Shown here: piece after piece, positions 50 to 12,079 of the stretch | Position numbering within the stretch: position 1 is the stretch's first letter | Layout: each line of letters starts with the position of its first letter | Source: a virus | DNA: 12,079 nt | Direction: 5' to 3' (one strand) | UHGV virus genome: UHGV-0141735 | Position numbers and translations under genes: made by a program | The notes under the pieces: generated by a model | What the model saw: the letters and a program-made list of their open reading frames with translations, nothing else | Databases searched by the model: none | What the model was told of the DNA's origin: nothing

Positions 50-1285
50 TTACGTGTGCAGTGTATGTTCGATTTTTTGATGTTTGAATAACCGATCAAC
101 CAATAATTCAAGTTTGTGAAAATCTGTAAGAGGATATAGCTTCACGATGTCTTCCTCAAAATTCGCTATACCTGATAATTTTTCTTTTTTTCGTAAGTAA
201 TCGATGGCAATTCTTTGTTCATTCGATATCTCAAACTGATTTTGATAATCTAAGGTTTTAAGTACTTGCCAAGACATAGGGGCTGTAAATTCGAAGTAAG
301 AAGCTAGTTTTGGACAAAAATCATATTGAATAGATTGCTTATAGGTTGCTTTAGGTGGTAATACAACATTAACAGAATATTTACTGCTCCTAGAATTCGG
401 CATTTTTGTAGAGTAATATGCTATCCCCGCTATTGGTGATTTAACCCGACGACCGATCCACTGCATTAATAAATTTGGGATTATATATTCAGGTGTGAAT
501 GATGAATTTTCTACGCGTTTTAAATAATTGCAAGCGATTAGTAATGGCCAGAATATCAAGTATGATGCTTTTGTTCTGTTTTCATCATATATTTTATTTT
601 CATCAACAGTTTTTTTAATTGGAAGTGAAAGGTGAGGAGAAGCAAAATTTAAAATTGTTGAATTTACATCGTTTGTAACGAAGGATGATATATATAATTT
701 ATCAAAATCTGGCTTTCCCATCTCTTGCCAACATACGTACAAGGATGTACCGAGATATAAGCAGGGTTGGCCTGCGACTGAATATCTTTGAGCATTCACT
801 AAATGTCTTTTTGAAAACGGAATATGAAATATTTGGTTGTGCTCAATCAAAGGGGTTTCTGATTTTCTGACCCGATAAAGTGGCTTTTCCTTATTGCAAA
901 AATCTTTTAGCAAGATACTAATTCGATTTAGTTGGGCTATTGTTGCCTCCTTTGACATAATGTCATCGAAAATGTCATATGCTTTTTTAATATCTCCAGA
1001 CAAAAACTCCTCTAGAGTTTTTTGTATGCACTTATGAATATTTGCAACTCGTCCTTTTAGAACTCTAAGTTCCCTACCGCATCCATTCATGTCTGCTTTT
1101 ATTGATTCATCAATTAAAGTCATATAAATTTTACATCGATTAGAAAAATCACTGGCTATATCGCCTTTAATGTTGAATGGTGGATTTAATTCTTCATGGC
1201 TCAATAGTCGCTCAAGAAAGTGATCAATCCAGAGTGCATTTTTCTTTTCTGATTCTAATTGAGTACTGGATTTTTTTTCGTCCAT
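50..1285 (-). CDS. Hypothetical AT-rich cargo protein (411 aa) with a central RES-like (Arg-Glu-Ser, NAD+-targeting toxin-type) region; function unproven
   Basis: Intact 411-codon ORF. Its ATG (1283-1285 on the minus strand) lies 4 nt downstream of the int stop, same orientation. Sample 60-nt lines count about 27-30% GC by hand, against about 60% in a gpA line. Motifs LYRVRK, then QRYSVAGQPCLYLGTSLYVCWQE, then AYYSTK...SVNVVLPP resemble the RES-domain core pattern (R ... G.P.LY.s.s...A..E ... S). Pattern-level only. Confidence 0.6.
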   Translation of the reverse strand: MDEKKSSTQLESEKKNALWIDHFLERLLSHEELNPPFNIKGDIASDFSNRCKIYMTLIDESIKADMNGCGRELRVLKGRVANIHKCIQKTLEEFLSGDIKKAYDIFDDIMSKEATIAQLNRISILLKDFCNKEKPLYRVRKSETPLIEHNQIFHIPFSKRHLVNAQRYSVAGQPCLYLGTSLYVCWQEMGKPDFDKLYISSFVTNDVNSTILNFASPHLSLPIKKTVDENKIYDENRTKASYLIFWPLLIACNYLKRVENSSFTPEYIIPNLLMQWIGRRVKSPIAGIAYYSTKMPNSRSSKYSVNVVLPPKATYKQSIQYDFCPKLASYFEFTAPMSWQVLKTLDYQNQFEISNEQRIAIDYLRKKEKLSGIANFEEDIVKLYPLTDFHKLELLVDRLFKHQKIEHTLHT

Positions 1286-1289
1286 GTTT

Positions 1290-2306
1290 TCACTCTATAT
1301 AGTTTAAAGGATTTTTAGTTACCGCATCCTCCAGATGATCTGGAGAAAAGTGCGCATAAATCATGGTCATTTTTATATCGGCATGGCCTAAAATTTCTTT
1401 AAGCACAAGTATGTTTCCTCCGTTCATCATAAAATGGCTGGCGAATGTATGACGTAATACATGGGTGCATTGACCCTCAGGAAGCTCAATATCGGCCCGC
1501 TTTACTGCACGCTCAAAGGCTTTTCTGCATGGTGAGAATAACTTCCCTCGATTTTTAGGAAGTTCGTTGTACAGATCCTGAGATATTGGCACGGTACGGT
1601 TTTTCTTGCCCTTCGTCTTGGTATAAGTGATGCGGTATTTGGATAATTGATGGCCCTGCAGATTTTCTGCTTCACTCCACCGTGCGCCAGTAGCTAGGCA
1701 TATTTTTGCAATCATTAGTAAGCTAGGGCTTTGAGATTCAGCACATGCCGCCAACAGGCGCTTGATTTCGTCCGTGGAAAGAAAAGCCAGCTCACCTTCG
1801 GCAATTTTGAAGGTCGGAAGTCCTGCCAGCGGGTTTGGTGCTGACCAGTGTCCTAGTTTTTTTAATGTACCGAACACCGATGATAGATTGCGCTGTTCAA
1901 GGTTTACCGTGCGGGGCTTAACGGGCGACATAAGCGTGCCATCTTCATTTCGTATTTCACCTTTTAACCGTGCTTCGCGGTATTTCGTAAAGTCTCCGGC
2001 TGTCAGTTCTGAGGCGATGGGGTCGCCTAGGCCATTACAGATAATTCTAAGTTTCGCCATGAGGCGCTTGGGGTCTGCGAGTGTCTGACCATACAGGGAA
2101 TACCAAAGCTCAATTAATTCTGATAGGCGTCGCCGATCATCCTTTTCACCCAACCACGGTTTTTTATTCACTTCTTCCATTGTGAAGCTTTCAAACGCAA
2201 TGGCTTCGCCTTTCGTGGCAAATTGCTTACGCACGCGCTTGCCATTGCGTCCATTGGGATAGCACTCGCACAACCATTTTCCGTTCGGCTGTTTTCTGAT
2301 GGTCAT
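1290..2306 (-). CDS. int: Tyrosine recombinase / phage integrase, P2/186 Int family
   Basis: 338 aa. C-terminal catalytic signature HVLRHTFASHFMMNGGNILVLKEILGHADIKMTMIYAHF (HxxR ... Y nucleophile), an upstream TGARWSEA box, and N-terminal GRNGKRVRKQF...AFE typical of P2-type Int. Its start is 1 nt from the repressor stop, the C-int operon layout. Confidence 0.95.
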   Translation of the reverse strand: MTIRKQPNGKWLCECYPNGRNGKRVRKQFATKGEAIAFESFTMEEVNKKPWLGEKDDRRRLSELIELWYSLYGQTLADPKRLMAKLRIICNGLGDPIASELTAGDFTKYREARLKGEIRNEDGTLMSPVKPRTVNLEQRNLSSVFGTLKKLGHWSAPNPLAGLPTFKIAEGELAFLSTDEIKRLLAACAESQSPSLLMIAKICLATGARWSEAENLQGHQLSKYRITYTKTKGKKNRTVPISQDLYNELPKNRGKLFSPCRKAFERAVKRADIELPEGQCTHVLRHTFASHFMMNGGNILVLKEILGHADIKMTMIYAHFSPDHLEDAVTKNPLNYIE

Positions 2307-2307
2307 A

Positions 2308-2940
2308 TCAAAGGCTCTTAATGATTTTCAGTGCGCGGCCTACTACCTCAATGTCATCCAGACCGCACTCAAACGATGAATCATCCTGATGCACTACTAA
2401 TTTGTTTCCCGGGAGTCGTGTCAATTTAACAATGCTTTTTATCCCGTCGATGTCCACTAACCACATACCATTTACTGGTGGTGTTTGGTTGCGATCTATT
2501 AAATAAGAATCACCAGAAGTAGTCACCAGCAGCAGGTTGCTTGAATCTGAGGGGAGTATGCTGCTATCAATGATTGCTTTTCCCGCATCGATCAATAAAC
2601 CACCGTTGAGAGTCGCCTTGTCAATTTCAGGAGATACTAGTTCAGAAAGAGGTACAACCTTGCTGGAGTTCACGGAATTGATATTTTTTTTAGGTTCAAT
2701 GTTTGGACCTGGCTCCCCCTGTCCGGTGGTTAGCCACAGTAAAGAAACTCCTGTTTCCAAGGCGCACTGAATCACCCACTCTGCAGGAAAACTATCTCTT
2801 AAGTATCTGTTTGCCATGGTGCTTTTTGATGCGCCTAAGTGATCGCAAAGTTGCTGTCTGGACTTGAAATCATAGGCTGCCATTAGTCTATGGATAGCCT
2901 CTCTTCCCCCTGTATTCTCTCCAACCTTTACCTGTATCAT
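2308..2940 (-). CDS. cI: Phage CI-type immunity repressor (N-terminal HTH, C-terminal oligomerisation/regulatory domain)
   Basis: 210 aa. Transcribed leftward from the early control region directly into int. N-terminus (RLMAAYDFKSRQQLCDHLGASKSTMANRYLR) looks like a phage CI-repressor HTH. The position matches 186 cI / P2 C. Confidence 0.8.
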   Translation of the reverse strand: MIQVKVGENTGGREAIHRLMAAYDFKSRQQLCDHLGASKSTMANRYLRDSFPAEWVIQCALETGVSLLWLTTGQGEPGPNIEPKKNINSVNSSKVVPLSELVSPEIDKATLNGGLLIDAGKAIIDSSILPSDSSNLLLVTTSGDSYLIDRNQTPPVNGMWLVDIDGIKSIVKLTRLPGNKLVVHQDDSSFECGLDDIEVVGRALKIIKSL

Positions 2941-2952
2941 TTTTTAATCCTG

Positions 2953-2981
2953 TTGACGTATCAAATATTGGATCGTAGTAT
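2953..2981 (+). promoter_or_regulatory. Candidate rightward early (lytic) promoter: -35 TTGACG (2953-2958), 17-bp spacer, -10 TAGTAT (2976-2981)
   Basis: Sigma70-like hexamers with 17-bp spacing, about 80 bp upstream of the first rightward gene (3060) and just upstream of the repressor start. Position is equivalent to pR/Pe of 186/P2. Confidence 0.45.
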
Positions 2982-3000
2982 CTCGATGTATCAAATATTG
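2958..3000. promoter_or_regulatory. Two identical 13-bp direct repeats GTATCAAATATTG (2958-2970 and 2988-3000) flanking the candidate -10; putative repressor operators
   Basis: Exact 13-bp direct repeat, 30 bp centre to centre, bracketing the -10 hexamer. P2-type C repressors are known to bind direct repeats flanking the early promoter -10. Confidence 0.45.
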
Positions 3001-3059
3001 AATCAAGTAAAACGAGATAAAACGACGTAAACCAAACCTTAATCGGGAGATACTGCACT

Positions 3060-3302
3060 ATGAGCACTGATATTTCAATTCGTGTACCAAAAGAGATGGC
3101 TACGCCTGCAGAGTTCGCGGAATGGGAAGGTATCTCCCGCGGCTCTGTGTATCAAAAAATTCACCATGGTCAGCTTGCTAAATACATGGTCAAGAAAGAA
3201 AAAAACAAAGGCCGCGTAAGCCTGCGTTATTTAATGTACAAAACCGATCAGGTCCGTGAATCCCTCGGTCATTCCAACTTCCGCGTCATTGTTGGTAAGT
3301 AA
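3060..3302 (+). CDS. Small DNA-binding regulator, Apl/Cox-like (excisionase / early-switch protein) by position
   Basis: 80 aa, first gene of the rightward operon opposite the repressor, as apl in 186 and cox in P2. Basic C-terminus, possible HTH (GISRGSVYQKIHHGQ). Positional inference. Confidence 0.55.
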   Translation: MSTDISIRVPKEMATPAEFAEWEGISRGSVYQKIHHGQLAKYMVKKEKNKGRVSLRYLMYKTDQVRESLGHSNFRVIVGK

Positions 3303-3334
3303 GTTCAATTATGAGAACTTTCTAAGGGGGTAGC

Positions 3335-3844
3335 ATGTTTGATTATAAGATTTCCAAACACCCGCATTTTGATGAAGCCTGTAGAGCTTTTGCACTTCGT
3401 CACAATATGGCGAAGCTGGCAGAACGTGCAGGAATGAATGTCCAGACTCTGCGAAACAAACTCAACCCAGATCAACCGCATCAGCTCAATGCGCCAGATA
3501 TCTGGCTACTTACCGATCTGACGGAAGATTCAACGCTGGTAGACGGTTTTCTGGCACAGATTCACTGCCTGCCATGTGTACCGATTAATGAGGTGGCAAA
3601 AGAGAAACTGCCACATTACGTCATGAGTGCAACCGCAGAGATCGGGCGTGTTGCTGCAGGTGCGGTATCTGGCGATGTAAAAACCAGTGCAGGTCGTCGT
3701 GATGCTATCAGCAGCATTAACTCTGTTACACGACTGATGGCGTTAGCTGCTGTTTCATTGCAGGCCCGTTTACAGGTTAATCCTGCGATGGCAAGTGCAG
3801 TTGATACTGTAACTGGCCTCGGTGCTTCATTCGGTTTGCTGTGA
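3335..3844 (+). CDS. cII: CII-like transcriptional activator (186 CII family)
   Basis: 169 aa. Strong RBS (AAGGGGG) 6 nt upstream. HTH-like segment NMAKLAERAGMNVQTLRNKLN. Position (second gene of early operon) and length match 186 CII as recalled from memory. Confidence 0.65.
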   Translation: MFDYKISKHPHFDEACRAFALRHNMAKLAERAGMNVQTLRNKLNPDQPHQLNAPDIWLLTDLTEDSTLVDGFLAQIHCLPCVPINEVAKEKLPHYVMSATAEIGRVAAGAVSGDVKTSAGRRDAISSINSVTRLMALAAVSLQARLQVNPAMASAVDTVTGLGASFGLL

Positions 3845-3851
3845 GGTGCTT

Positions 3852-4052
3852 ATGCTGACGAAAGAACCATCATTTGCATCGCTGCTGGTAAAACAAAGTC
3901 CGGCAATGCACTACGGTCACGGCTGGATCATGGGTGAGGATGGTAAACGCTGGCATCCGTGCCGTTCACAAGATGAATTGCTGGCAGAACTATCTACGAA
4001 AAAACGGGGGAACAAATGGCTATTGAAGGCGCTGCGGCGACTGTTCCATTAA
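3852..4052 (+). CDS. Small early protein of unknown function (positional equivalent of 186 fil / P2 orf78)
   Basis: ATG at 3852 preceded by GAGG 5 nt upstream, 8 nt after the cII stop. The longer ORF-track version starts at a GTG inside cII and is less likely. Confidence 0.45.
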   Translation: MLTKEPSFASLLVKQSPAMHYGHGWIMGEDGKRWHPCRSQDELLAELSTKKRGNKWLLKALRRLFH

Positions 4053-4357
4053 GCCCCGGTGAACGCCTGAATGGACTTAATCACATAGCGGAATTAAGGG
4101 CGAAAGTTTTTGGCCTGAATATTGAGTCAGAGCTTGAGCGGTTTATTAAAGATATGCGTGATCCACGGGATATCAATAACGAACAAAATAAACGAGCACT
4201 GGCAGCCATATTCTTTATGGCAAAAATTCCGGCTGAACGTCATAGCATCAGCATCAATGAGCTGACCACTGACGAAAAGCGGGAGTTGATTAAAGCAATG
4301 AATCATTTTCGTGCAGTGGTGAGCTTATTTCCCAGACGGCTAACCATGCCGAATTAA
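4016..4357 (+). CDS. Hypothetical early protein (113 aa)
   Basis: ORF with GGGGGA RBS 4 nt upstream of ATG 4016. Overlaps the previous small ORF by 37 nt. No recognisable motifs. Confidence 0.45.
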   Translation: MAIEGAAATVPLSPGERLNGLNHIAELRAKVFGLNIESELERFIKDMRDPRDINNEQNKRALAAIFFMAKIPAERHSISINELTTDEKRELIKAMNHFRAVVSLFPRRLTMPN

Positions 4358-4424
4358 CCAACTAATGAAATTAATGGCGTAAACCCGCCGGGCATCCCTT
4401 TATCTAAATTCAGGAGAATTGATT

Positions 4425-4658
4425 ATGCGTAATATTGAAATCCTCACGACTAAAACCGGACCGGATGATGCTGGGCTTAATATTTTACTGACAGAGGCTC
4501 GTCTGGAAGAACGCCGGGCAAGGGCTGAAGCAATGGCAGCTCGCCTTGATAGCCTGGCGTGTCATATCTCATCCCGTCAGCTAAACCACGTGGAAGCGGC
4601 AGAACTGCTGCGTGTGACTGCTGAAGCAATCCAGAACGAAGCGCAGGAGATCCACTAA
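4425..4658 (+). CDS. Hypothetical early protein (77 aa, Arg/Ala/Glu-rich, likely coiled coil)
   Basis: AGGAG RBS 8 nt upstream of ATG 4425. Its stop overlaps the start of the next gene (TAATG). Confidence 0.5.
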   Translation: MRNIEILTTKTGPDDAGLNILLTEARLEERRARAEAMAARLDSLACHISSRQLNHVEAAELLRVTAEAIQNEAQEIH

Positions 4659-4885
4659 TGGCTGATGCAATGGATCTCGTACAGCAGCGCGTTGAAGAAG
4701 AACGCCAGCGCCATATCCGTGCTGCCCGTGCCAAAACACCGGGCGTGTCTCGCGTGCTTTGCATTGAGTGTGAAGCGCCAATTCCGCCAGCACGCCGCCG
4801 TGCCATTCCGGGTGTGCAGCTTTGCATTACCTGCCAGGAAATTGCAGAGCTGAAAGGCAAACATTACAACGGAGGTGCTGTATGA
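4658..4885 (+). CDS. TraR/DksA-family C4 zinc-finger protein
   Basis: 75 aa with CIECEAPIPPARRRAIPGVQLCITCQ (CxxC-x17-CxxC), as in TraR/DksA-like small proteins common in P2-like early operons. Start and stop are overlap-coupled with neighbours. Confidence 0.75.
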   Translation: MADAMDLVQQRVEEERQRHIRAARAKTPGVSRVLCIECEAPIPPARRRAIPGVQLCITCQEIAELKGKHYNGGAV

Positions 4886-5736
4886 GCACCATCCTGAAAT
4901 GGGCGGGAAATAAAACCGCCATTATGTCCGAACTGAAAAAACACCTTCCTGCTGGCCCGCGACTGGTTGAACCTTTCGCGGGTTCCTGTGCAGTGATGAT
5001 GGAGACGGATTACCCCAGCTATCTGGTTGCGGATATTAATCCTGATTTAATCAACCTCTATAAAAAGGTTGCCGCTGATTGTGAATCGTTTATATCTCGC
5101 GCCAGAGTTTTATTTGAGAACGCAAACAGGGAGATGGATTATTACAACATAAGGCAGGAGTTTAATTACTCAACTGAAATTACTGATTTCATGAAAGCGG
5201 TATATTTCCTGTATCTCAATCGTCACGGTTACCGTGGTTTATGCCGCTATAACAAGAGCGGGCATTTCAACATTCCCTACGGTAATTATAAAAATCCGTA
5301 TTTCCCTGAAAAAGAAATTCGCGCATTTGCAGAAAAAGCCCAGCGGGCAACGTTTATCTGCGCCAGCTTTGATGAAACGCTGGCGATGTTGAAAGCGGGG
5401 GATGTGGTGTATTGCGATCCGCCGTATGACGGTACGTTTTCCGGCTATCACACTGATGGTTTCACTGAAGATGACCAGTATCACCTGGCATCCGTTCTTG
5501 AACATCGAGCATCTGAAGGACATCCGGTCATTGTTTCTAACAGTGACACGTCTTTGACCCGGTCTCTTTATCGTAATTTCACTCACCACTACATCAGGGC
5601 GAAACGCAGCATCGGCGTTGCAGCGGGGGAGGGAAAATTTGCAACAGAGATGATTGCCACTAAATCTGCTAATTGGTTTAGTGCCGATTTTAGTAGGGGA
5701 CGTGACTCTACTGTTATTTTCGGGGTGCAAGTGTGA
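4882..5736 (+). CDS. dam: DNA adenine methyltransferase (Dam family, GATC N6-adenine MTase)
   Basis: N-terminal LKWAGNK...LVEPFAGS (AdoMet-binding motif), [19 protein letters not shown], and catalytic VYCDPPY; near-collinear with E. coli Dam. True start is ATG 4882 (GGAGGTG RBS, ATGA overlap with upstream stop), not the longer 4822 ORF. Confidence 0.95.
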
Positions 5737-6563
5737 AAGAAATGCACCACGGAATTCATCATTTCCATGGGACGCCTGTCTGGGGAAGTGCTGGCGACGT
5801 TCATCGTATTGCGGTGAGCGGAGCTGGTGCTTTCGTCTCCTATGTACGACCAGATCAGATTGCGGCGTCCATTCAGCACGCTCAGGTCGTCGGCATTGAT
5901 AACGGCGCATTTTCTGCATGGGTGCGTGGGCTAAAAATTAACTGGAGTGATTTTTATAAATGGCTCCTGAACTATTACCACCATCCTAAGGTCGCTTTTT
6001 TTGTCATTCCTGATGTTGTGGACGGAGGTGAACGTGACAATGATGCCCTGATAAACGAAGTTCCGAAAATGTTCTACGGGAAGGCAACTCCCGTCTGGCA
6101 TCTGCACGAGTCAATCGATCGGCTTATCGAGCTATGTCGTGAATGGCCTCGTGTCTGCTTTGGATCGTCTGGTGAATATGCGGCTATTAGAACTGCGCAC
6201 TGGCATCGTCGTATGCAGGACGCTTTTGAAGCAATTTATTGCCGACACAATTTCAAAACAGCTGTTCATGGTTTGCGCATGCTTGACGGTCGTGTGTTGG
6301 GAAATTACCCACTGGCGACTGCCGACAGTACAAATCTTGCCTGCAATGTCCCCAAATTTAATAGCAAATATCCTGAGCTTACGCGGGCTATTCAGGAGGC
6401 TGAGTATTCGCGCAATCTGACGGAAAAGGAGCTGAAAGCTGTCATTCTGAAAAACCGTTGCGCAATTTTAAAAGGTGCAATTGAAGCTGTTCGCCCACCT
6501 TCAGTTTCTGACTGGCTGTCGAATGGTTTGCAGCCTTCACAGCTCGAACTGGAGATTGCGTAA
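5733..6563 (+). CDS. Conserved hypothetical protein (276 aa); possible TGT/DpdA-like DNA-modification enzyme (speculative)
   Basis: Start (GTG 5733 or ATG 5742) overlaps the dam stop and its stop overlaps the gpA start (TAATG), so it is translationally coupled inside the early operon. [12 protein letters not shown] resembles the DSGGFQ catalytic-Asp motif of tRNA-guanine transglycosylase-fold proteins, but the Cys/His zinc site is not evident. Confidence 0.6.
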
Positions 6564-8935
6564 TGAACTACAGCTATTCCTGGAATGCTGAGAAAAAAGC
6601 AATCAATCCTTACGTAGAGACAGAAGAGCAATCTTCAGTTTCTGCGCTTTCAAACCTGATCACTCTGTACGCTGTCGATAACGAGCAGGAACAACTGCGT
6701 CGCGAGGCACTGAGTGATCAGGTCTGGGAGCGTTATTTCTTTAATGAATCCCGTGATCCTGTCCAACGCGAAATGGAGCAGGATAAGCTCATTAGTCGGG
6801 CAAAGCTGGCGCATGAGCAGCAGCGTTTTAATCCGGATATGGTCATTCTGGCGGACGTCAACGCCCAGCCTTCCCATATCAGCAAGCCGCTGATGCAACG
6901 TATTGAATACTTCAGCAGCCTGGGCAGGCCAAAGGCTTATTCCCGCTATTTGCGTGAGACGATTAAGCCATGTCTGGAACGGCTGGAGCATGTACGCGAC
7001 AGTCAGCTATCCACTTCTTTTCGCTTTATTGCGAGCCATGAAGGGCTGGACGGCCTGCTGATCCTGCCTGAAATGAGTCAGGATCAGGTGAAACGCCTGT
7101 CCACCCTGGTAGCTGCGCATATGAGCATGTGCCTTGATGCCGCTTGTGGTGATTTGTACGCCACCGATGATGTTAAGCCAGAAGAAATCCGCAAGACATG
7201 GGAAAAGGTGGCAGCGGAAACCCTGCGTCTGGATGTCATCCCGCCTGCGTTTGAGCAACTCCGCCGGAAAAGAAACCGCCGTAAACCCGTGCCCTATGAA
7301 CTCATTCCGGGTTCGCTGGCGCGTATGTTGTGCGCTGACTGGTGGTACCGGAAATTATGGAAGATGCGTTGCGAATGGCGGGAAGAGCAGTTGCGTGCTG
7401 TCTGCCTTGTCAGCAAAAAAGCATCTCCCTATGTCAGCTATGAAGCCGTGATGCATAAACGTGAGCAGCGCCGTAAGTCGCTGGAGTTTTTCCGTTCTCA
7501 TGAACTGGTGAACGAAGACGGCGACACGCTGGACATGGAGGATGTGGTAAACGCCAGCAGCAGCAACCCTGCGCATCGCCGCAATGAGATGATGGCCTGT
7601 GTTAAAGGTCTGGAGCTTATCGCGGAAATGCGTGGCGACTGCGCCGTTTTCTACACCATCACCTGTCCGTCACGTTTCCATTCCACGCTAAATAACGGCA
7701 GGCCCAACCCGACCTGGACAAATGCGACGGTAAGACAAAGCAGTGATTATCTGGTCGGCATGTTTGCTGCATTTCGTAAGGCGATGCACAAAGCCGGATT
7801 GCGCTGGTATGGCGTGCGGGTGGCTGAGCCGCATCATGACGGCACAGTTCACTGGCACCTGTTGTGTTTTATGCGCAAAAAAGACCGCCGCGCCATTACT
7901 GCTTTGTTGCGTAAGTTTGCCATTCGTGAAGACTGCGAGGAGCTGGGTAATAACACGGGGCCACGCTTTAAGTCTGAGCTGATAAACCCGCGCAAAGGAA
8001 CGCCGACAAGCTACATCGCGAAATATATCAGCAAGAACATTGACGGGCGTGGTCTGGCTGGCGAGATCAGCAAGGAAACGGGTAAATCTCTGCGTGATAA
8101 CGCTGAATACGTGAATGCCTGGGCGTCTTTGCATCGTGTTCAGCAATTCCGCTTCTTTGGTATTCCGGGACGTCAGGCTTACCGTGAACTTCGCTTGCTG
8201 GCTGGTCAGGCGGCAAGGCAACAGGGTGACAAAAAAGCAGGTGCGCCGGTACTGGATAACCCGCGTCTTGATGCCATTCTGGCTGCTGCTGATGCTGGTT
8301 GTTTTGCCACCTACATCATGAAGCAGGGCGGCGTACTGGTTCCCCGTAAATATCACCTCATCAGAACCGCTTATGAAATCAACGAAGAGCCGACCGCCTA
8401 TGGCGATCACGGTATTCGTATTTATGGCATCTGGTCACCCATTGCAGAGGGCAAGATCTGCACTCATGCAGTGAAGTGGAAAATGGTTCGTAAAGCCGTT
8501 GACGTTCAGGAGGCGGCAGCCGACCAGGGCGCTTGCGCCCCTTGGACTCGTGGCAATAACTGTCCCTTTGCTGAAAATTTGAACCAACAGGAGAAAGATA
8601 AATCAGCTGATGGGGACCCCAGAACGGACATTACCAGCATGGATGACAAGGAGTTGCACGATTACCTGCACAGTATGAGCAAAAAAGAGCGCCGGGAACT
8701 GGCAGCAAGGTTACGCCTGGTGAAACCGAAACGGCGTAAAGACTACAAACAGCGAATTACAGACCATCAGCGACTGCAGCTCGTGTATGAGCTGAAGTCC
8801 AGAGGATTTGATGGCAGCGAGAAAGAGGTCGATTTACTCCTTCGCGGAGGCAGTATTCCGTCAGGAGCAGGCCTGCGTATCTTCTATCGGAACCAGCGTT
8901 TGCAGGAAGATGATCAGTGGCGGAACCTGTATTAA
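6563..8935 (+). CDS. A: Rolling-circle replication initiator endonuclease (P2 gpA family, HUH relaxase-type)
   Basis: 790 aa. HUH motif VHWHLLCF and paired catalytic tyrosines YIAKYISK (YxxKY) in the expected order and spacing. Size and position match P2/186 gene A. Confidence 0.9.
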
Positions 8936-9029
8936 TTACGCGGGTTAACAATTCGTGCTCTTAATAATACCAGGCATATCAGGCTGATGAACGTAAAAAA
9001 ACGTTTTACATCAGTAAGATTATTATATA

Positions 9030-9045
9030 CTGTAAATATAAACAG
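9030..9045. promoter_or_regulatory. LexA (SOS) box CTGTAAATATAAACAG
   Basis: Perfect CTGT-N8-ACAG palindrome, AT-rich centre, flanks TA...TG (tactgtaaatataaacagtg), about 44 bp upstream of ATG 9089. Confidence 0.55.
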
Positions 9046-9088
9046 TGGTTATACATACAGTATTGCGTGTGGTGTCATAGGAGGAAAG

Positions 9089-9277
9089 ATGCAGGACTAT
9101 TTTTTGGAGTCTTTGAAGCTCCAGCGCATTGATTTTTTTCTTAAGCTTGTAGCGGCTAGTGAGTGTAGTGATGAAGAGAAGGGGCTGGCTCTGCAGTGGG
9201 TTTCTGAATTGACTGATGAACTCATGGCAAAAATCAGAACCCACGAATACAACCGCTCAATGGATGTCATCAGCTGA
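9089..9277 (+). CDS. Small hypothetical protein (62 aa), first gene of the SOS-controlled module
   Basis: ATG 9089 with AGGAGG 4-5 nt upstream, downstream of the LexA box. The longer 8987 start would place the LexA box inside the coding region, so the short form is preferred. Confidence 0.4.
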   Translation: MQDYFLESLKLQRIDFFLKLVAASECSDEEKGLALQWVSELTDELMAKIRTHEYNRSMDVIS

Positions 9278-9287
9278 GGTGACTTTT

Positions 9288-9521
9288 ATGCGCATTGAAA
9301 TAATGATCGATAAAGAGCAGAAGATTAGCCAGTCTACCCTAGACGCCCTTGAATCCGAGCTTTACCGCAATCTGCGCCCCCTGTATCCCAAAACGGTAAT
9401 TCGCATTCGCAAAGGTAGCTCTAACGGTGTGGAACTAACCGGACTGCAACTGGACGAAGAAAGAAAACAAGTGATGAAAATTATGCAGAAGGTGTGGGAA
9501 GACGACAGCTGGCTGCATTAA
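9288..9521 (+). CDS. DinI-family protein (186 Tum-like SOS-inducible module)
   Basis: 77 aa, MRIEIMIDKEQ...LDALESELYRNL...KIMQKVWEDDSWLH, collinear with E. coli DinI (MRIEVTIAK...ILQETWESADDWF). GAGGTG RBS 6 nt upstream. Confidence 0.85.
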   Translation: MRIEIMIDKEQKISQSTLDALESELYRNLRPLYPKTVIRIRKGSSNGVELTGLQLDEERKQVMKIMQKVWEDDSWLH

Positions 9522-9656
9522 GAAACGTTGCTGGCGTCTGAACTTGCTTCTGGCGTCAGCAAGGTTGAACAACGAGCCCTTGCGAGGCGTTAGCTCTGTA
9601 GTGCATGTCTATGCCGCATGAGATCGCATGATCGTTTGAGGATCGTTTTTGCTAAG

Positions 9657-9680
9657 GCCCGCCAGAACTGGCGGGCTTTT
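9657..9680 (+). terminator. Rho-independent terminator closing the early/SOS operon
   Basis: GCCCGCCAG / CTGGCGGGC inverted repeat (9-nt arms) followed by TTTT. Confidence 0.55.
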
Positions 9681-9725
9681 GCGTAGATCATGCAGGTGCA
9701 TGAAAACCACTACATAAAGCGGGCA

Positions 9726-9745
9726 GGCGTGGCGGGGATACGAGC
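9726..9745. other. cos-like sequence (P2/186-type cohesive-end site) GGCGTGGCGGGGATACGAGC
   Basis: Matches the first 13 nt of the P2/186 cohesive end as recalled from memory (GGCG[A/T]GGCGGGGA), followed by GCGCGCT as remembered for the P2 left end. Lies between the early region and the portal side, where cos is expected. Confidence 0.45.
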
Positions 9746-9854
9746 GCGCGCTCATGGTTGAATTAATGAAATTATGGTGTTAAATAGGCTAGCTTTTTAA
9801 GTCGTGAATATTCAATTTTTCAACTCATTTTTTTCATAGGGAGGAGTAATTGAC

Positions 9855-10553
9855 ATGGTTATGTTAGTGGATGACTGTCCACGATGTGGATCACAAAAAA
9901 TAGCGTTTGATGTTAATGGGCTGAATTGCACTAGGGTTTACAATGCATTGGGCGGGGGTAAAACATACGAGTACGAGGTCTATTGTGTTTGCCGAGAGTG
10001 TCATAAAACGACAATGTTTCTTTGCAGACCTTTAACGAAAAATAAAAATTTAGATGGCTATAATTGGGAAAGTGGAATATTCGGCTTAAAGGAAGTTGCA
10101 GAGGTTGTTAGGCCTATATCACCGGCAGACTTAGCAGTAGAGGAGCCACCAGAGTTCTTACCTGAGCATATCAATAGTGCATATGAGGAAGGGGCGAAAT
10201 GTTTGGCTATAGGTTGTTATAATGCAGCAGCAACCATGTTTAGGCTTTGCCTTGATTATGCCACAAAAGGACTTCTTCCTGATGGGGAGCAAGGGCCTGC
10301 GCAAAAAATAAGGAGAAGCCTAGGGTTAAGAATGGAGTGGTTATTTGATAATCATCTACTGCCTGAAGCTTTAAGGGAACTAGCTGAATGCGTTAAAGAT
10401 GACGGAAATGATGGAGCGCATGAAGGTATTTTGGATAAAGCTGCTGCTGAGGATCTTGAAGATTTTACCTATCTTTTTTTAGAACGGCTTTACACTGAAC
10501 CTCAACGCCTTATCGAAGCCAAGACAAGGCGTGAACAAAGAAGAAACAAATAA
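9855..10553 (+). CDS. AT-rich cargo protein (232 aa): N-terminal four-Cys zinc ribbon plus acidic all-alpha C-terminal domain; unknown function, defence candidate
   Basis: Strong RBS AGGGAGGAG 8 nt upstream of ATG 9855 and an AT-rich upstream region. CPRCG...CVCRECH zinc ribbon. C-terminal LRELAECVKDDGNDGAHEG motif. Sits between the cos-like site and the portal stop (8-bp gap), convergent with the portal fragment. Confidence 0.75.
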   Translation: MVMLVDDCPRCGSQKIAFDVNGLNCTRVYNALGGGKTYEYEVYCVCRECHKTTMFLCRPLTKNKNLDGYNWESGIFGLKEVAEVVRPISPADLAVEEPPEFLPEHINSAYEEGAKCLAIGCYNAAATMFRLCLDYATKGLLPDGEQGPAQKIRRSLGLRMEWLFDNHLLPEALRELAECVKDDGNDGAHEGILDKAAAEDLEDFTYLFLERLYTEPQRLIEAKTRREQRRNK

Positions 10554-10561
10554 GTTCGGAA

Positions 10562-11200
10562 TTATTCTTCTGAAAGAATATAGGGCGTAAATTTAATCAC
10601 TTCTTCGCCCAGCCAGTCGTTCAGCTCTTGTAGCCTTTTTTGCAAGGGCGTTAATTCATTACGTACAAATACGCGACTGGCCTTCTCCACATCCCCAAAC
10701 CCTCCAACATTATTAGGCATAATCCCCATCATTTGCGGCGGCACGCGGTGCGCAGCCATCATGTCGTCGCGGCTGACATTTTTGATATTCAAAAACTCAT
10801 CCTTCGCCGCGACTTCTGACAATGGGATGATCTGAAGCCCGTCTTTTTTGCCGTTAGGCGAGTACATAAACAGGTTGCGGAAGTTGCCTGGACCTTTGGC
10901 GCTTTTCATCGCATTGCGGAGGTTGTTCACATCCTCCTGGTTTTGCGCGGCATCGGTCATGTACATGATAAAGCCCGCATGACTGCCGTTAATGTAATAC
11001 TTGCGACGGAACAGCGTGGCGGACTCGTTGAGCAGGGCTGACGGAATGGCAGAAAGATAACCGGGCAGGCCGTAGATCTCCTGATTAATATCCGGTTCCA
11101 TCAGATGAAAAATGCTGCCTTTCGTGAACTGATACGGCTGGGTTGTCATACCGTATTGCACAAACCAGTAGGTAACGGTTTTACGACCAGTATTGAACTT
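10562..11200 (-). pseudogene. Q: 5'-truncated portal gene (P2 gpQ family), C-terminal roughly 210 codons retained
   Basis: From about TGRKTVTYWFVQ to the C-terminus (DMMAAHRVPPQMMGIMPNNVGGFGDVEKASRVFVRNELTPLQKRLQELNDWLGEEV) the translation reads as a portal protein. The ORF's N-terminal 45 residues are low-complexity and overlap the ogr start, so the upstream boundary (about 11200) is approximate. Confidence 0.65.
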
Positions 11201-11301
11201 GAAGTGAAAATTGGTGATCTTGAAATGGAATAAATGGTTCTCAATATTGATATTTTGTGTATCATTGCAATGATTCTGATAGCAAAGGTAGGGATCTGGA
11301 T

Positions 11302-11520
11302 ATGATGAATTGTCCAAAGTGTGGTCATGCGGCGCACACAAGGAGCAGTTTTCAAGTAACAGAAAGCACCAAAGAGCGTTACTGCCAGTGCCAAAATATT
11401 AACTGCGGGAGCACTTTTGTTACCCATGAAACAGTGGTCCGGTTTATTGTGACACCTGCAGTGATTGCCACAGCCCCTCCACATCCATTGCCAGGTGGTC
11501 AGGGCCATATGAATTTTTAA
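11302..11520 (+). CDS. ogr: Ogr/Delta-family zinc-finger late-gene transcriptional activator
   Basis: MMNCPKCGHAAHTRSS...KERYCQCQNINCGSTFVTHETVVRFIV...PHPLPGGQ is collinear with P2 Ogr (CxxC-x22-CxC-x4-C). Start at ATG 11302 preferred over the longer 11257 ORF. Confidence 0.9.
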   Translation: MMNCPKCGHAAHTRSSFQVTESTKERYCQCQNINCGSTFVTHETVVRFIVTPAVIATAPPHPLPGGQGHMNF

Positions 11521-11527
11521 GAAAGAG

Positions 11528-11549
11528 AACCTGCTACGGCAGGTTTTTA
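11528..11549 (+). terminator. Hairpin plus T-tract after ogr (AACCTGC-TACG-GCAGGTT-TTTTA)
   Basis: 7-bp stem, 4-nt loop, followed by TTTTTA. The stop of the convergent minus-strand gene lies in the T-tract. Confidence 0.45.
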
Positions 11550-12029
11550 TTCATCTGGGATCTCACCCGTTTCAAGAAAATGTATAAAGCCAGGCTCATC
11601 TATGATGATAGTGCCTTTCATCCTGGCTGCCGATACTTTTGATGGGCCTGCATTGTAACCGCAACAGAGCATCTGAAGGTTTTGGGTTACAGATGTTCTT
11701 ACCGTTAATCCTTGTTCATTCGCCTTATCAACCAACCTTTCTTTATCTGCTTTCTTAAATCCGGTGAAACACACATCGAATGTATTTTTTTTCGGACCTG
11801 ACTGCTTAGTGAGATGTGAGTAGTTTTCGGGGAGGAATGACGCGCATTCCTGAATGGCTTGTTCTTGTGAATCGTATTGTTTAAGAATGCGGTCTTTTCG
11901 GAAGGTTTTTATTCGATCGGTGTTCTTACAAATGCCCTGTATGTGATTTTCGCTATAACTGATGCTCTGTATTGAGTGAACACCGATACGACCATTTGCA
12001 TTGATGTAAACAAAGTGAAGTTCTTCCAT
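11547..12029 (-). CDS. Small BRCT-domain protein (160 aa) with a beta-rich N-terminal domain; unknown function
   Basis: Good SD (AAGAGG) upstream of ATG. C-terminal VCFTGFKKADKERLVDKANEQGLTVRTSVTQNLQMLCCGYNAGPSKVSAARMKGTIIIDEPGFIHFLETGE fits the BRCT pattern (hydrophobic-TG start, central G-G/S-K, C-terminal hydrophobic acidic end). AT-rich relative to the prophage core. Confidence 0.65.
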   Translation of the reverse strand: MEELHFVYINANGRIGVHSIQSISYSENHIQGICKNTDRIKTFRKDRILKQYDSQEQAIQECASFLPENYSHLTKQSGPKKNTFDVCFTGFKKADKERLVDKANEQGLTVRTSVTQNLQMLCCGYNAGPSKVSAARMKGTIIIDEPGFIHFLETGEIPDE

Positions 12030-12079
12030 GTCAAACCTCTTTGCATGATTTCAAGATGGCGACAGGCAAGATGGACGCA

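Follow-up and report, generated by a model that had tools for sequence, protein, structure and literature searches.

How does a cohesive-end (cos) packaging site come to lie in an element that carries no virion genes, and does anything there still depend on it? The question is raised by a 12,079-nt stretch of viral DNA (UHGV virus genome UHGV-0141735; hereafter, the window), for which the original prediction proposed that the GC-rich sequence at 9726–9745 closely resembles the cohesive-end region of phages P2 and 186, that its retention in an element lacking virion genes would allow helper-dependent packaging, and that its position puts a 232-aa cargo gene between cos and the portal gene, at the start of the packaged genome.

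Identity of the cos site

The 27-mer GGCGTGGCGGGGATACGAGCGCGCGCT is found at window positions 9726–9752. Its first 19 nt (9726–9744, plus strand) are the cohesive-end sequence GGCGTGGCGGGGATACGAG (cosN), the allele of Fels-2, SEN8 and Cartapus, and the interval 9726–9745 corresponds to this sequence plus one base, the quoted 27-mer extending further. The core GGCGWGGCGGGGA is present as a single copy in the 12,079-nt window, compared to 0.01 expected from dinucleotide shuffles. For comparison with known sites, the circular junctions of P2, 186 and P4 were reconstructed from the ends of the GenBank records and aligned to the window and to Fels-2 and Cartapus, with the register of the flanks fixed by the cos core. 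Reading left flank, cohesive end and right flank in turn, the junction of P2 is GGTGCATTAAAACCGCCCCGTGAAGCGGGCG, GGCGAGGCGGGGAAAGCAC, TGCGCGCT, that of 186 is ACTGCATTAAAACCGACCCATAAAGTGGGCA, GGCGTGGCGGGGAAAGCAT, TGCGCGCC, and that of the window is AGGTGCATGAAAACCACTACATAAAGCGGGCA, GGCGTGGCGGGGATACGAG, CGCGCGCT. Over the 35 nt left of the core, the window was identical to P2 at 26/35, to 186 at 27/35 and to P4 at 26/35 positions (P ~1e-9 to 1e-10); the 19-mer itself matched these three phages at 14–15 of 19 positions, and the 8 nt to its right (+1 to +8) at 6–7 of 8. From +9 to +60, identity to the reference junctions (17–21 of 52) was at chance level. Agreement was far closer with Fels-2 (55/55 left, 19/19 core, 7/8 right) and Cartapus (51/55 left, including 34/35 in the nearest 35 nt, 19/19 core, 8/8 right). 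In the Fels-2-like Salmonella phage SEN8, exactly this 19-mer has been reported as cos (PMC5427200); the cos sites of SEN8 and Cartapus are both annotated by homology.

Like the cos sites of P2, 186 and P4, that of the window has a GC-rich 19-nt 5′ end starting with GGCG(A/T)GGCGGGG, a conserved block toward the genome right end (gene A/psu side), a GCGCGC box adjoining the 19-mer and the same position relative to the portal gene. It differs from them at overhang positions 14–19, which read TACGAG and not AAGCAC or AAGCAT, and shows no similarity to P2 and 186 past +8 because the cargo gene is inserted there in the window. The gene order is gpA, small ORF, DinI-like gene, cos, cargo and portal (minus strand, read towards cos), and a comparison of gene orders placed cos likewise between the gpA region and the portal in P2, 186, Fels-2 and Cartapus. 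A conserved P2/P4 cos core of ~55 bp is described in papers citing Ziermann & Calendar 1990 (PMC9122126, PMC3931495, PMC9594776). Since the similarity between P2 and P4 amounts to the same limited core, and P2 terminase packages P4, this limited core is the functionally relevant pattern.

Conservation was then assessed across the family by scanning IMG/VR for the degenerate cos core, which returned 115 distinct P2/P4-type contexts. As positions 1–12 of the overhang were fixed by the search pattern, allelic variation was visible solely at positions 13–19. The window allele was the commonest (31 of the 115 contexts), and between −110 and +17 the window agreed with 36 of 36 strongly conserved, unconstrained columns; no conservation was seen past +27 among these contexts. 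That the cos resemblance is a chance match of a GC-rich stretch, a view for which the shortness of the core speaks and nothing else, is next to impossible: it is refuted by the flank alignment and its identity statistics (P ~1e-9 with the register fixed) and by the conserved columns, and the site is identical to that of Fels-2 and Cartapus in correct synteny. By its sequence, we identify 9726–9744 as an authentic P2-family (Peduoviridae) cos site of the Fels-2/SEN8/Cartapus allele, predicted to be competent in that it is identical to the site of viable phages; none of the observations contradicts this identity. The proposed resemblance to P2 and 186 was thus confirmed, as the alignment carried the likeness beyond the GC-rich core and across ~110 nt on the gene A side. 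The site itself is already known, with its exact sequence published and its cargo-hotspot neighborhood textbook for P2-like phages.

At least 14 alleles of the 19-nt overhang were present among the 115 contexts (IMG/VR loci L013–L132). Eight contexts were classed as P4-like by tblastn with Psu on the IMG/VR loci, the window itself being left out; in this small sample the alleles AGAGCAT and AAAGCAC alone occurred and the ATACGAG allele of the window was found in 0 of 8, a split that may reflect matching of cos between helpers and satellites.

Architecture of the conserved block

In the alignment with P2, 186, P4, Fels-2 and Cartapus, the whole conserved cos block spans 9616–9752 (plus strand) and comprises ~110 nt on the gene A side, the 19-mer and a CGCGCGC(T) box. 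Conservation ends at 9752/9753, and phage BLAST matches end at window 9751–9753. The gene A side holds four GCATGA motifs between 9616 and 9703 (at 9616, 9626, 9688 on the minus strand and 9698) that fall in family-conserved columns of the 115 contexts. These are 4 of the 10 occurrences in the window, all inside 88 nt (0.07 expected, P ~1e-6), and we infer that the cluster represents candidate terminase-recognition (cosB-like) repeats.

Read directly from the sequence, a GC-rich hairpin with a trailing T run (GCCCGCCAG-AA-CTGGCGGGC-TTTT; 9657–9680, plus strand) lies within the same block. It is partly conserved at −70 to −50 in the 115 contexts and occupies the place of terminator t95b in the 186 annotation. 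A consensus scan did not pick up the hairpin; from its form and place, it is likely the terminator of the SOS/DinI operon.

At such a site, the terminase of the parent phage (gpM and gpP homologues) would recognize the ~110-nt gene A-side block together with the GCGCGC box and would introduce nicks staggered by 19 nt, giving 5′ cohesive ends GGCGTGGCGGGGATACGAG. This mechanism is established for P2 and P4 and would extend to the window by homology.

A recent deletion next to cos

Fels-2, SEN8 and Cartapus (LF82 prophage 4, Elveevirus) share the 19-mer of the window; as complete phages, they encode terminase, capsid and tail proteins themselves, whereas the window element has lost these genes. 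LF82 produces Cartapus virion DNA (PMC9928086). Cartapus further shares with the window the DUF4145 cargo gene and, at 99.8% identity, the portal 3′ part. Window 9694–11174 is 99.8% identical to Cartapus nt 1–1481, after which the match breaks, and window 11173–12079 is 99.9% identical to Cartapus 22439–23345 (last 59 nt of tail gene D, ogr and gp32). Missing between them are ~21 kb (Cartapus 1482–22438) with the 5′ part of the portal gene, the two terminase genes and the genes for capsid, lysis and tail. At the junction (11173–11175), portal codon 141 is joined to the 3′ end of gene D with 2 nt (TA) of microhomology. On its left lies the portal 3′ remnant (10562–11174, minus strand; Pfam Phage_portal), which retains codons 141–344 of 344 and has lost the N-terminal 140 codons; on its right are the last 59 nt of gene D (11175–11233, plus strand; by Cartapus match and annotation). 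As proposed, the element indeed has no virion genes: the portal is interrupted at 11174, and no terminase, capsid or tail gene is present.

The ssrA tmRNA gene and attR core start 74 nt past the window end (tmRNA found in locus L133), the 3′ end of ssrA (45 nt) is part of the Cartapus attP, and in a relative a copy of attL is located ~70–110 nt left of the window. These flanking att copies give an element of ~12.3 kb. With P2-type early genes, att repeats at the tmRNA gene and morphogenetic genes lost, the element has the makeup of a defective (cryptic) P2-like prophage and not that of an autonomous P2-like phage, for which terminase (gpM, gpP), portal, capsid and tail genes are missing or cut.

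The junction is real and not an assembly artifact, because it is identical in two independent assemblies: 100% identity over 11.5 kb was found in ENA ERZ651956 (a 111-kb chromosomal contig) and in Logan SRR8086038, the 12,284-nt contig of which ends at the att repeats. Exact-protein look-ups recovered the junction in few assemblies, always beside ssrA, and it was absent from 5,426 complete E. coli genomes, GTDB species representatives and JGI metagenomes. The intact relative GCA_027556065.1 is 99.93% identical over window 5854–11174 (5.3 kb), and two metagenome contigs match at 100% as far as 11174; past that point, all three run on into intact genes for portal and terminase. Because intact parents are 99.93–100% identical up to the junction, the ~21-kb deletion appears to be very recent.

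The reading that we strongly favor is that an authentic cos resides in a passive, sequence-competent relic, probably retained by accident of where the deletion starts. In the window, the site belongs to a ~12.3-kb remnant of a Cartapus/Fels-2-like prophage integrated at ssrA, in which a single recent TA-microhomology deletion of ~21 kb would have taken the virion and terminase genes up to the last 59 nt of D. cos would have been kept since it lies 1.43 kb outside the deleted interval, with no demonstrable present role needed; it would be silent without terminase, and its cutting and packaging would depend on packaging functions from another phage with matching terminase, co-resident or superinfecting, once the remnant had excised and replicated. 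With the left end of the deletion 1.43 kb to the right of cos, retention can be accounted for without selection. The view that retention calls for a functional explanation therefore falls away for so recent a deletion, and the original prediction is partly supported, with functional retention unproven and unnecessary.

Morphogenetic genes have been lost through other, independent deletions in H2 (L012; portal to tape measure), KL53 (L008; gpO to gpD) and AF56 (L162; multiple), all of which keep the early region and cos-proximal cargo. These deletions match the defective P2-like elements with conserved defense genes that have been described (PMC13586616).

A 69% direct repeat that seemed to link the DUF4145 gene with the portal region was an artifact of P2 and 186 loci in the BLAST database, and self-comparison of the window gave no such repeat. 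An Rfam search of the window returned no RNA family.

Prospects for helper-dependent mobilization

The remnant retains an intact early region (1290–8935) that encodes integrase, CI, a Cox/Apl-like excisionase, cII, fil, Dam methylase, a 276-aa ORF and gpA with its ori (Pfam, PHROG); in gene order, DUF5347, DUF2732 and TraR/DksA also appear between Fil and Dam (Pfam, PHROG). The replication endonuclease gpA occupies 6563–8935, and near 8544 an ori-like site can be aligned with that of P2. A perfect LexA-box-like CTGT-N8-ACAG (9030–9045, plus strand) precedes a 62-aa ORF and the DinI-like gene. The DinI/Tum-like gene (9288–9521, plus strand; Pfam DinI 1.3e-22; gene calls in L133) is the last before cos. 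Together with the 62-aa ORF it spans 9089–9521, in a layout that resembles the SOS-controlled p95-tum antirepressor operon of the 186 annotation. From the LexA-like box and this layout, the remnant is probably still SOS-inducible. On the far side of the deletion, the ogr-like late-gene activator is intact (11302–11520, plus strand; Pfam Ogr_Delta 1.3e-20; Cartapus gp31).

Two 20-nt direct repeats 30 nt apart (GAYGTATCAAATATTGRATC; 2955–2974 and 2985–3004) were noted in the CI/cox-like intergenic region and are probably repressor operators of the lysis-lysogeny switch.

This gene content raises the alternative that the remnant is a working helper-dependent (satellite-like) element that undergoes SOS excision, replicates from gpA and ori, and is packaged via cos by a Fels-2/Cartapus-type helper; Ogr may transactivate helper late genes, and dimers or trimers may enter T=7 heads or a monomer P4-sized heads. 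The LexA box and DinI/Tum-like gene, integrase, Cox-like excisionase, gpA and ogr are all intact, cos is identical to that of viable phages, the element (~12.3 kb) is close in size to P4 (11.6 kb), and a recurrent portal breakpoint (see below) gives several relatives a similar architecture. There are also precedents, as plasmids with a P2/P4 cos are packaged and transduced by P2 (PMC9594776, PMC2231350), P4 multimers can fill P2-sized heads with low efficiency (PMC6893505), and the defective P2-like prophage Sp13 of O157 Sakai is reported as MMC-induced, excised, amplified and recovered as particulate, DNase-resistant DNA (PMC2669165). Nevertheless, spread was not seen (the junction is absent from complete E. 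coli genomes, GTDB representatives and JGI metagenomes), near-identity to an intact parent indicates a very young deletion and not an evolved lineage, and the Pfam/PHROG matches include no Sid or Psu homologue, the early genes all being P2-type. Furthermore, three copies (~36.9 kb) would amount to 110% of the 33.4-kb parent genome, and the window cos allele was in none of the eight P4-like IMG/VR contexts. We consider a working satellite unlikely.

P4-like satellites resemble the window element in their size (~12 kb), integrase, own replication, Ogr/Delta-type activator and a helper-shared cos beside a defense hotspot; they differ in carrying P4 genes (alpha primase, sid, psu, delta, epsilon). 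No P4 core genes were found in the window (Pfam, PHROG), where all genes are P2/186-type, and the element derives from a helper-type phage by deletion and not from the P4 lineage. Sp13 is, like the window, P2-like, without head and packaging genes and with early functions kept; it belongs to a different lineage, has a P4 epsilon-like gene and, in the portion of the report drawn on here, was packaged inefficiently, with no mention of transfer (PMC2669165). P2/P4 cosmids offer a parallel in that any circular replicon with the cos region is packaged by P2 machinery in trans, and differ from the remnant in being engineered 5–10 kb plasmids whose transduction efficiency strongly depends on the length of the cos flanks.

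Overall, the preferred reading of a passive relic has to accommodate the intact induction, excision, replication and late-activation genes, the P4-like size and the recurrent breakpoint, which argue against a merely passive state. Helper-dependent packaging of the remnant is plausible, because integrase, cox, the SOS operon, gpA, ogr and cos are intact and the cosmid, P4-multimer and Sp13 precedents exist. Loss of every virion gene can leave a prophage with a fully competent packaging signal and with its genes for induction, excision, replication and late activation intact, and this toolkit would make the remnant's putative defense cargo potentially transferable by a related phage, as with Sp13.

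A recurrent breakpoint in the portal gene

The breakpoint at window 11174 corresponds to nt 1481 of Cartapus (NC_070909), and six deletions in related prophages start after this nucleotide. A look-up of the 195-aa truncated portal product led to Logan SRR23828410, a different relative with the same portal breakpoint, whose deletion extends from that nucleotide as far as gene X, immediately upstream of the genes for holin, lysis and tail. IMG/VR was scanned for the 24 nt that border the junction on its left where these precede a base other than T, and the five matches comprised one SNP and four junctions to unrelated downstream sequence. In Cartapus coordinates, the right ends of the six deletions are nt 22439 in gene D (the window), 7048 in gene X (L144), 15182 in the invertase gene (L147), 20001 in the tape-measure gene (L148), 23253 in gp32 (L150) and 22097 in gene D (L151). 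All six junctions have a TA overlap, the native partner sites ending in ...GATA, AATA, TTA or CATA, and all six retain the cos-proximal side. The portal fragments of the deletion cases are 89–100% identical to Cartapus. Their cargo comprises DUF4145, an unknown three-gene set, PDC-M03, retron II-A, and retron I-A with PtuAB-like genes; because cargo differs between cases, the six deletions are independent events.

Two controls, a conserved 24-mer located 36 nt to the left and the reciprocal pattern with the right side retained, produced SNPs only, which supports the specificity of the breakpoint. Truncations in this region of the portal gene are rare (10 of 1,199 E. coli records), and portal truncations elsewhere in the gene were found in H2, AF56 and the records of hits H122 and H125.

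Several candidate causes of the hot spot were rejected. A gpA pseudo-ori at this position scored below the random mean in alignment, and Din-invertase crossover does not fit, as the real sites at Cartapus 13348 and 14879 have TT/AA centers and a different sequence. Single-stranded DNA hairpins gave z-scores of −0.9 and −0.3, Cartapus has no Chi, and a fixed distance from cos fails in that the distance varies from 1.4 to 4.2 kb. IS insertion was dismissed since the IS21 of MFDS1019527 adjoins cos and is not in the portal gene. A 10-mer common to the ssrA/attP core, 9 nt right of the breakpoint, was a post hoc observation (chance ~0.005) and unconvincing. A fixed end with variable partners leads us to conjecture an enzyme-held or stalled 3′ end, or a site-specific break.

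The recurrence, to the nucleotide in at least six independent deletions, hints at a non-random process generating cos-retaining mini-elements. In its strongest form, a sequence-determined, one-sided hot spot in the portal gene (after CAAACCAGTAGGTA, 11174) would repeatedly turn Fels-2/Cartapus-type prophages into derivatives without capsid and packaging genes that keep cos, integrase, replication genes and defense cargo, and that may persist as domesticated defense islands or be mobilized by intact relatives via cos. We regard this as distinctly unlikely. Several of the deletion derivatives are about P4-sized (11.6–12.8 kb), and if the proposal were true, a helper-type phage would spawn its own satellite-like derivatives. 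If the breakpoint reflects a specific mechanism, prophage decay in this lineage would be non-random and would systematically yield small, cos-retaining defense carriers.

Cargo beside cos

The 232-aa DUF4145 cargo gene (9855–10553, plus strand; Pfam DUF4145 4.5e-7; PHROG 1305 6e-53) is equivalent to Cartapus gp01 and has a weak PADLOC match to PD-T7-4 (1.2e-6). It starts 110 nt past the cos 19-mer and 102 nt past the conserved block, and a promoter scan found no plus-strand sigma-70 match upstream of it. Across 90 sampled IMG/VR loci, the distance from cos to portal was ~170–190 nt in ~40 and 220–4,420 nt, with cargo, in ~50. The gpA–gpQ interval adjoining cos is a defense hotspot of P2-like phages (Rousset et al. 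2022, PMC9122126), and variable accessory genes were found directly beside cos, between gpA and gpQ. Cargo between cos and portal is the standard layout of intact P2-like phages. The location assigned to the 232-aa gene was correct, and it is not special to this element, as a gene in the same place is found in Cartapus and cargo in ~50 of the 90 sampled phages. The DUF4145 gene occupies the ordinary cos-proximal cargo/defense hotspot, with a putative role in defense.

Relatives with the same cos allele carry DUF4145, retron II-A, retron I-A with a Septu-like pair, PDC-M03 or an unknown three-gene set. Such diversity behind a single allele could suggest that cos matters here mainly as a recombination hotspot, where cohesive ends made by terminase promote exchange of cargo cassettes between P2-like elements, defective ones included. 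Relatives are homologous precisely as far as +8 past the 19-mer, where unrelated cargo starts; this possibility was raised as speculation in PMC9122126, and whether defective elements still swap defenses is asked in PMC13586616. However, the association is purely correlative, and a sharp homology edge is equally expected if the portal side is dispensable for packaging, making this explanation very improbable as the main significance of the site.

IS elements were observed inside the hotspot of relatives, with IS21 just upstream of the DUF4145 gene in MFDS1019527 (L163, ~11045–13008) and IS1 in KL53 (L008, ~12639–13336).

Other accessory genes

Between attL and the integrase gene lies a 411-aa accessory ORF (50–1285, minus strand; PHROG 7835). 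At this int-adjacent position, relatives encode GapS1, an anti-phage dCTP deaminase or DUF262, and Cartapus a RES-domain protein. Because relatives carry different genes there, window 50–1285 is suggested to be a second, int-adjacent cargo or defense locus. The 276-aa ORF between Dam and gpA (5733–6563; PHROG 887, labeled queuine tRNA-ribosyltransferase-like) is an optional module of the early operon, being present in KL53 and the source lineage and missing in Cartapus as well as in the relatives H2 and ET734. At the att-proximal end, a 160-aa gene (11547–12029, minus strand) corresponds to Cartapus gp32, annotated as "putative exonuclease", and gave a weak BRCT match, a "DNA ligase"-like PHROG match and a weak PADLOC PDC-S48 match. 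The Cartapus gene annotated "putative exonuclease protein" (LF82_783) is among those expressed 15-fold above background in LF82 lysogens (PMC9928086), and from this expression the 160-aa gene looks like a lysogen-expressed moron.
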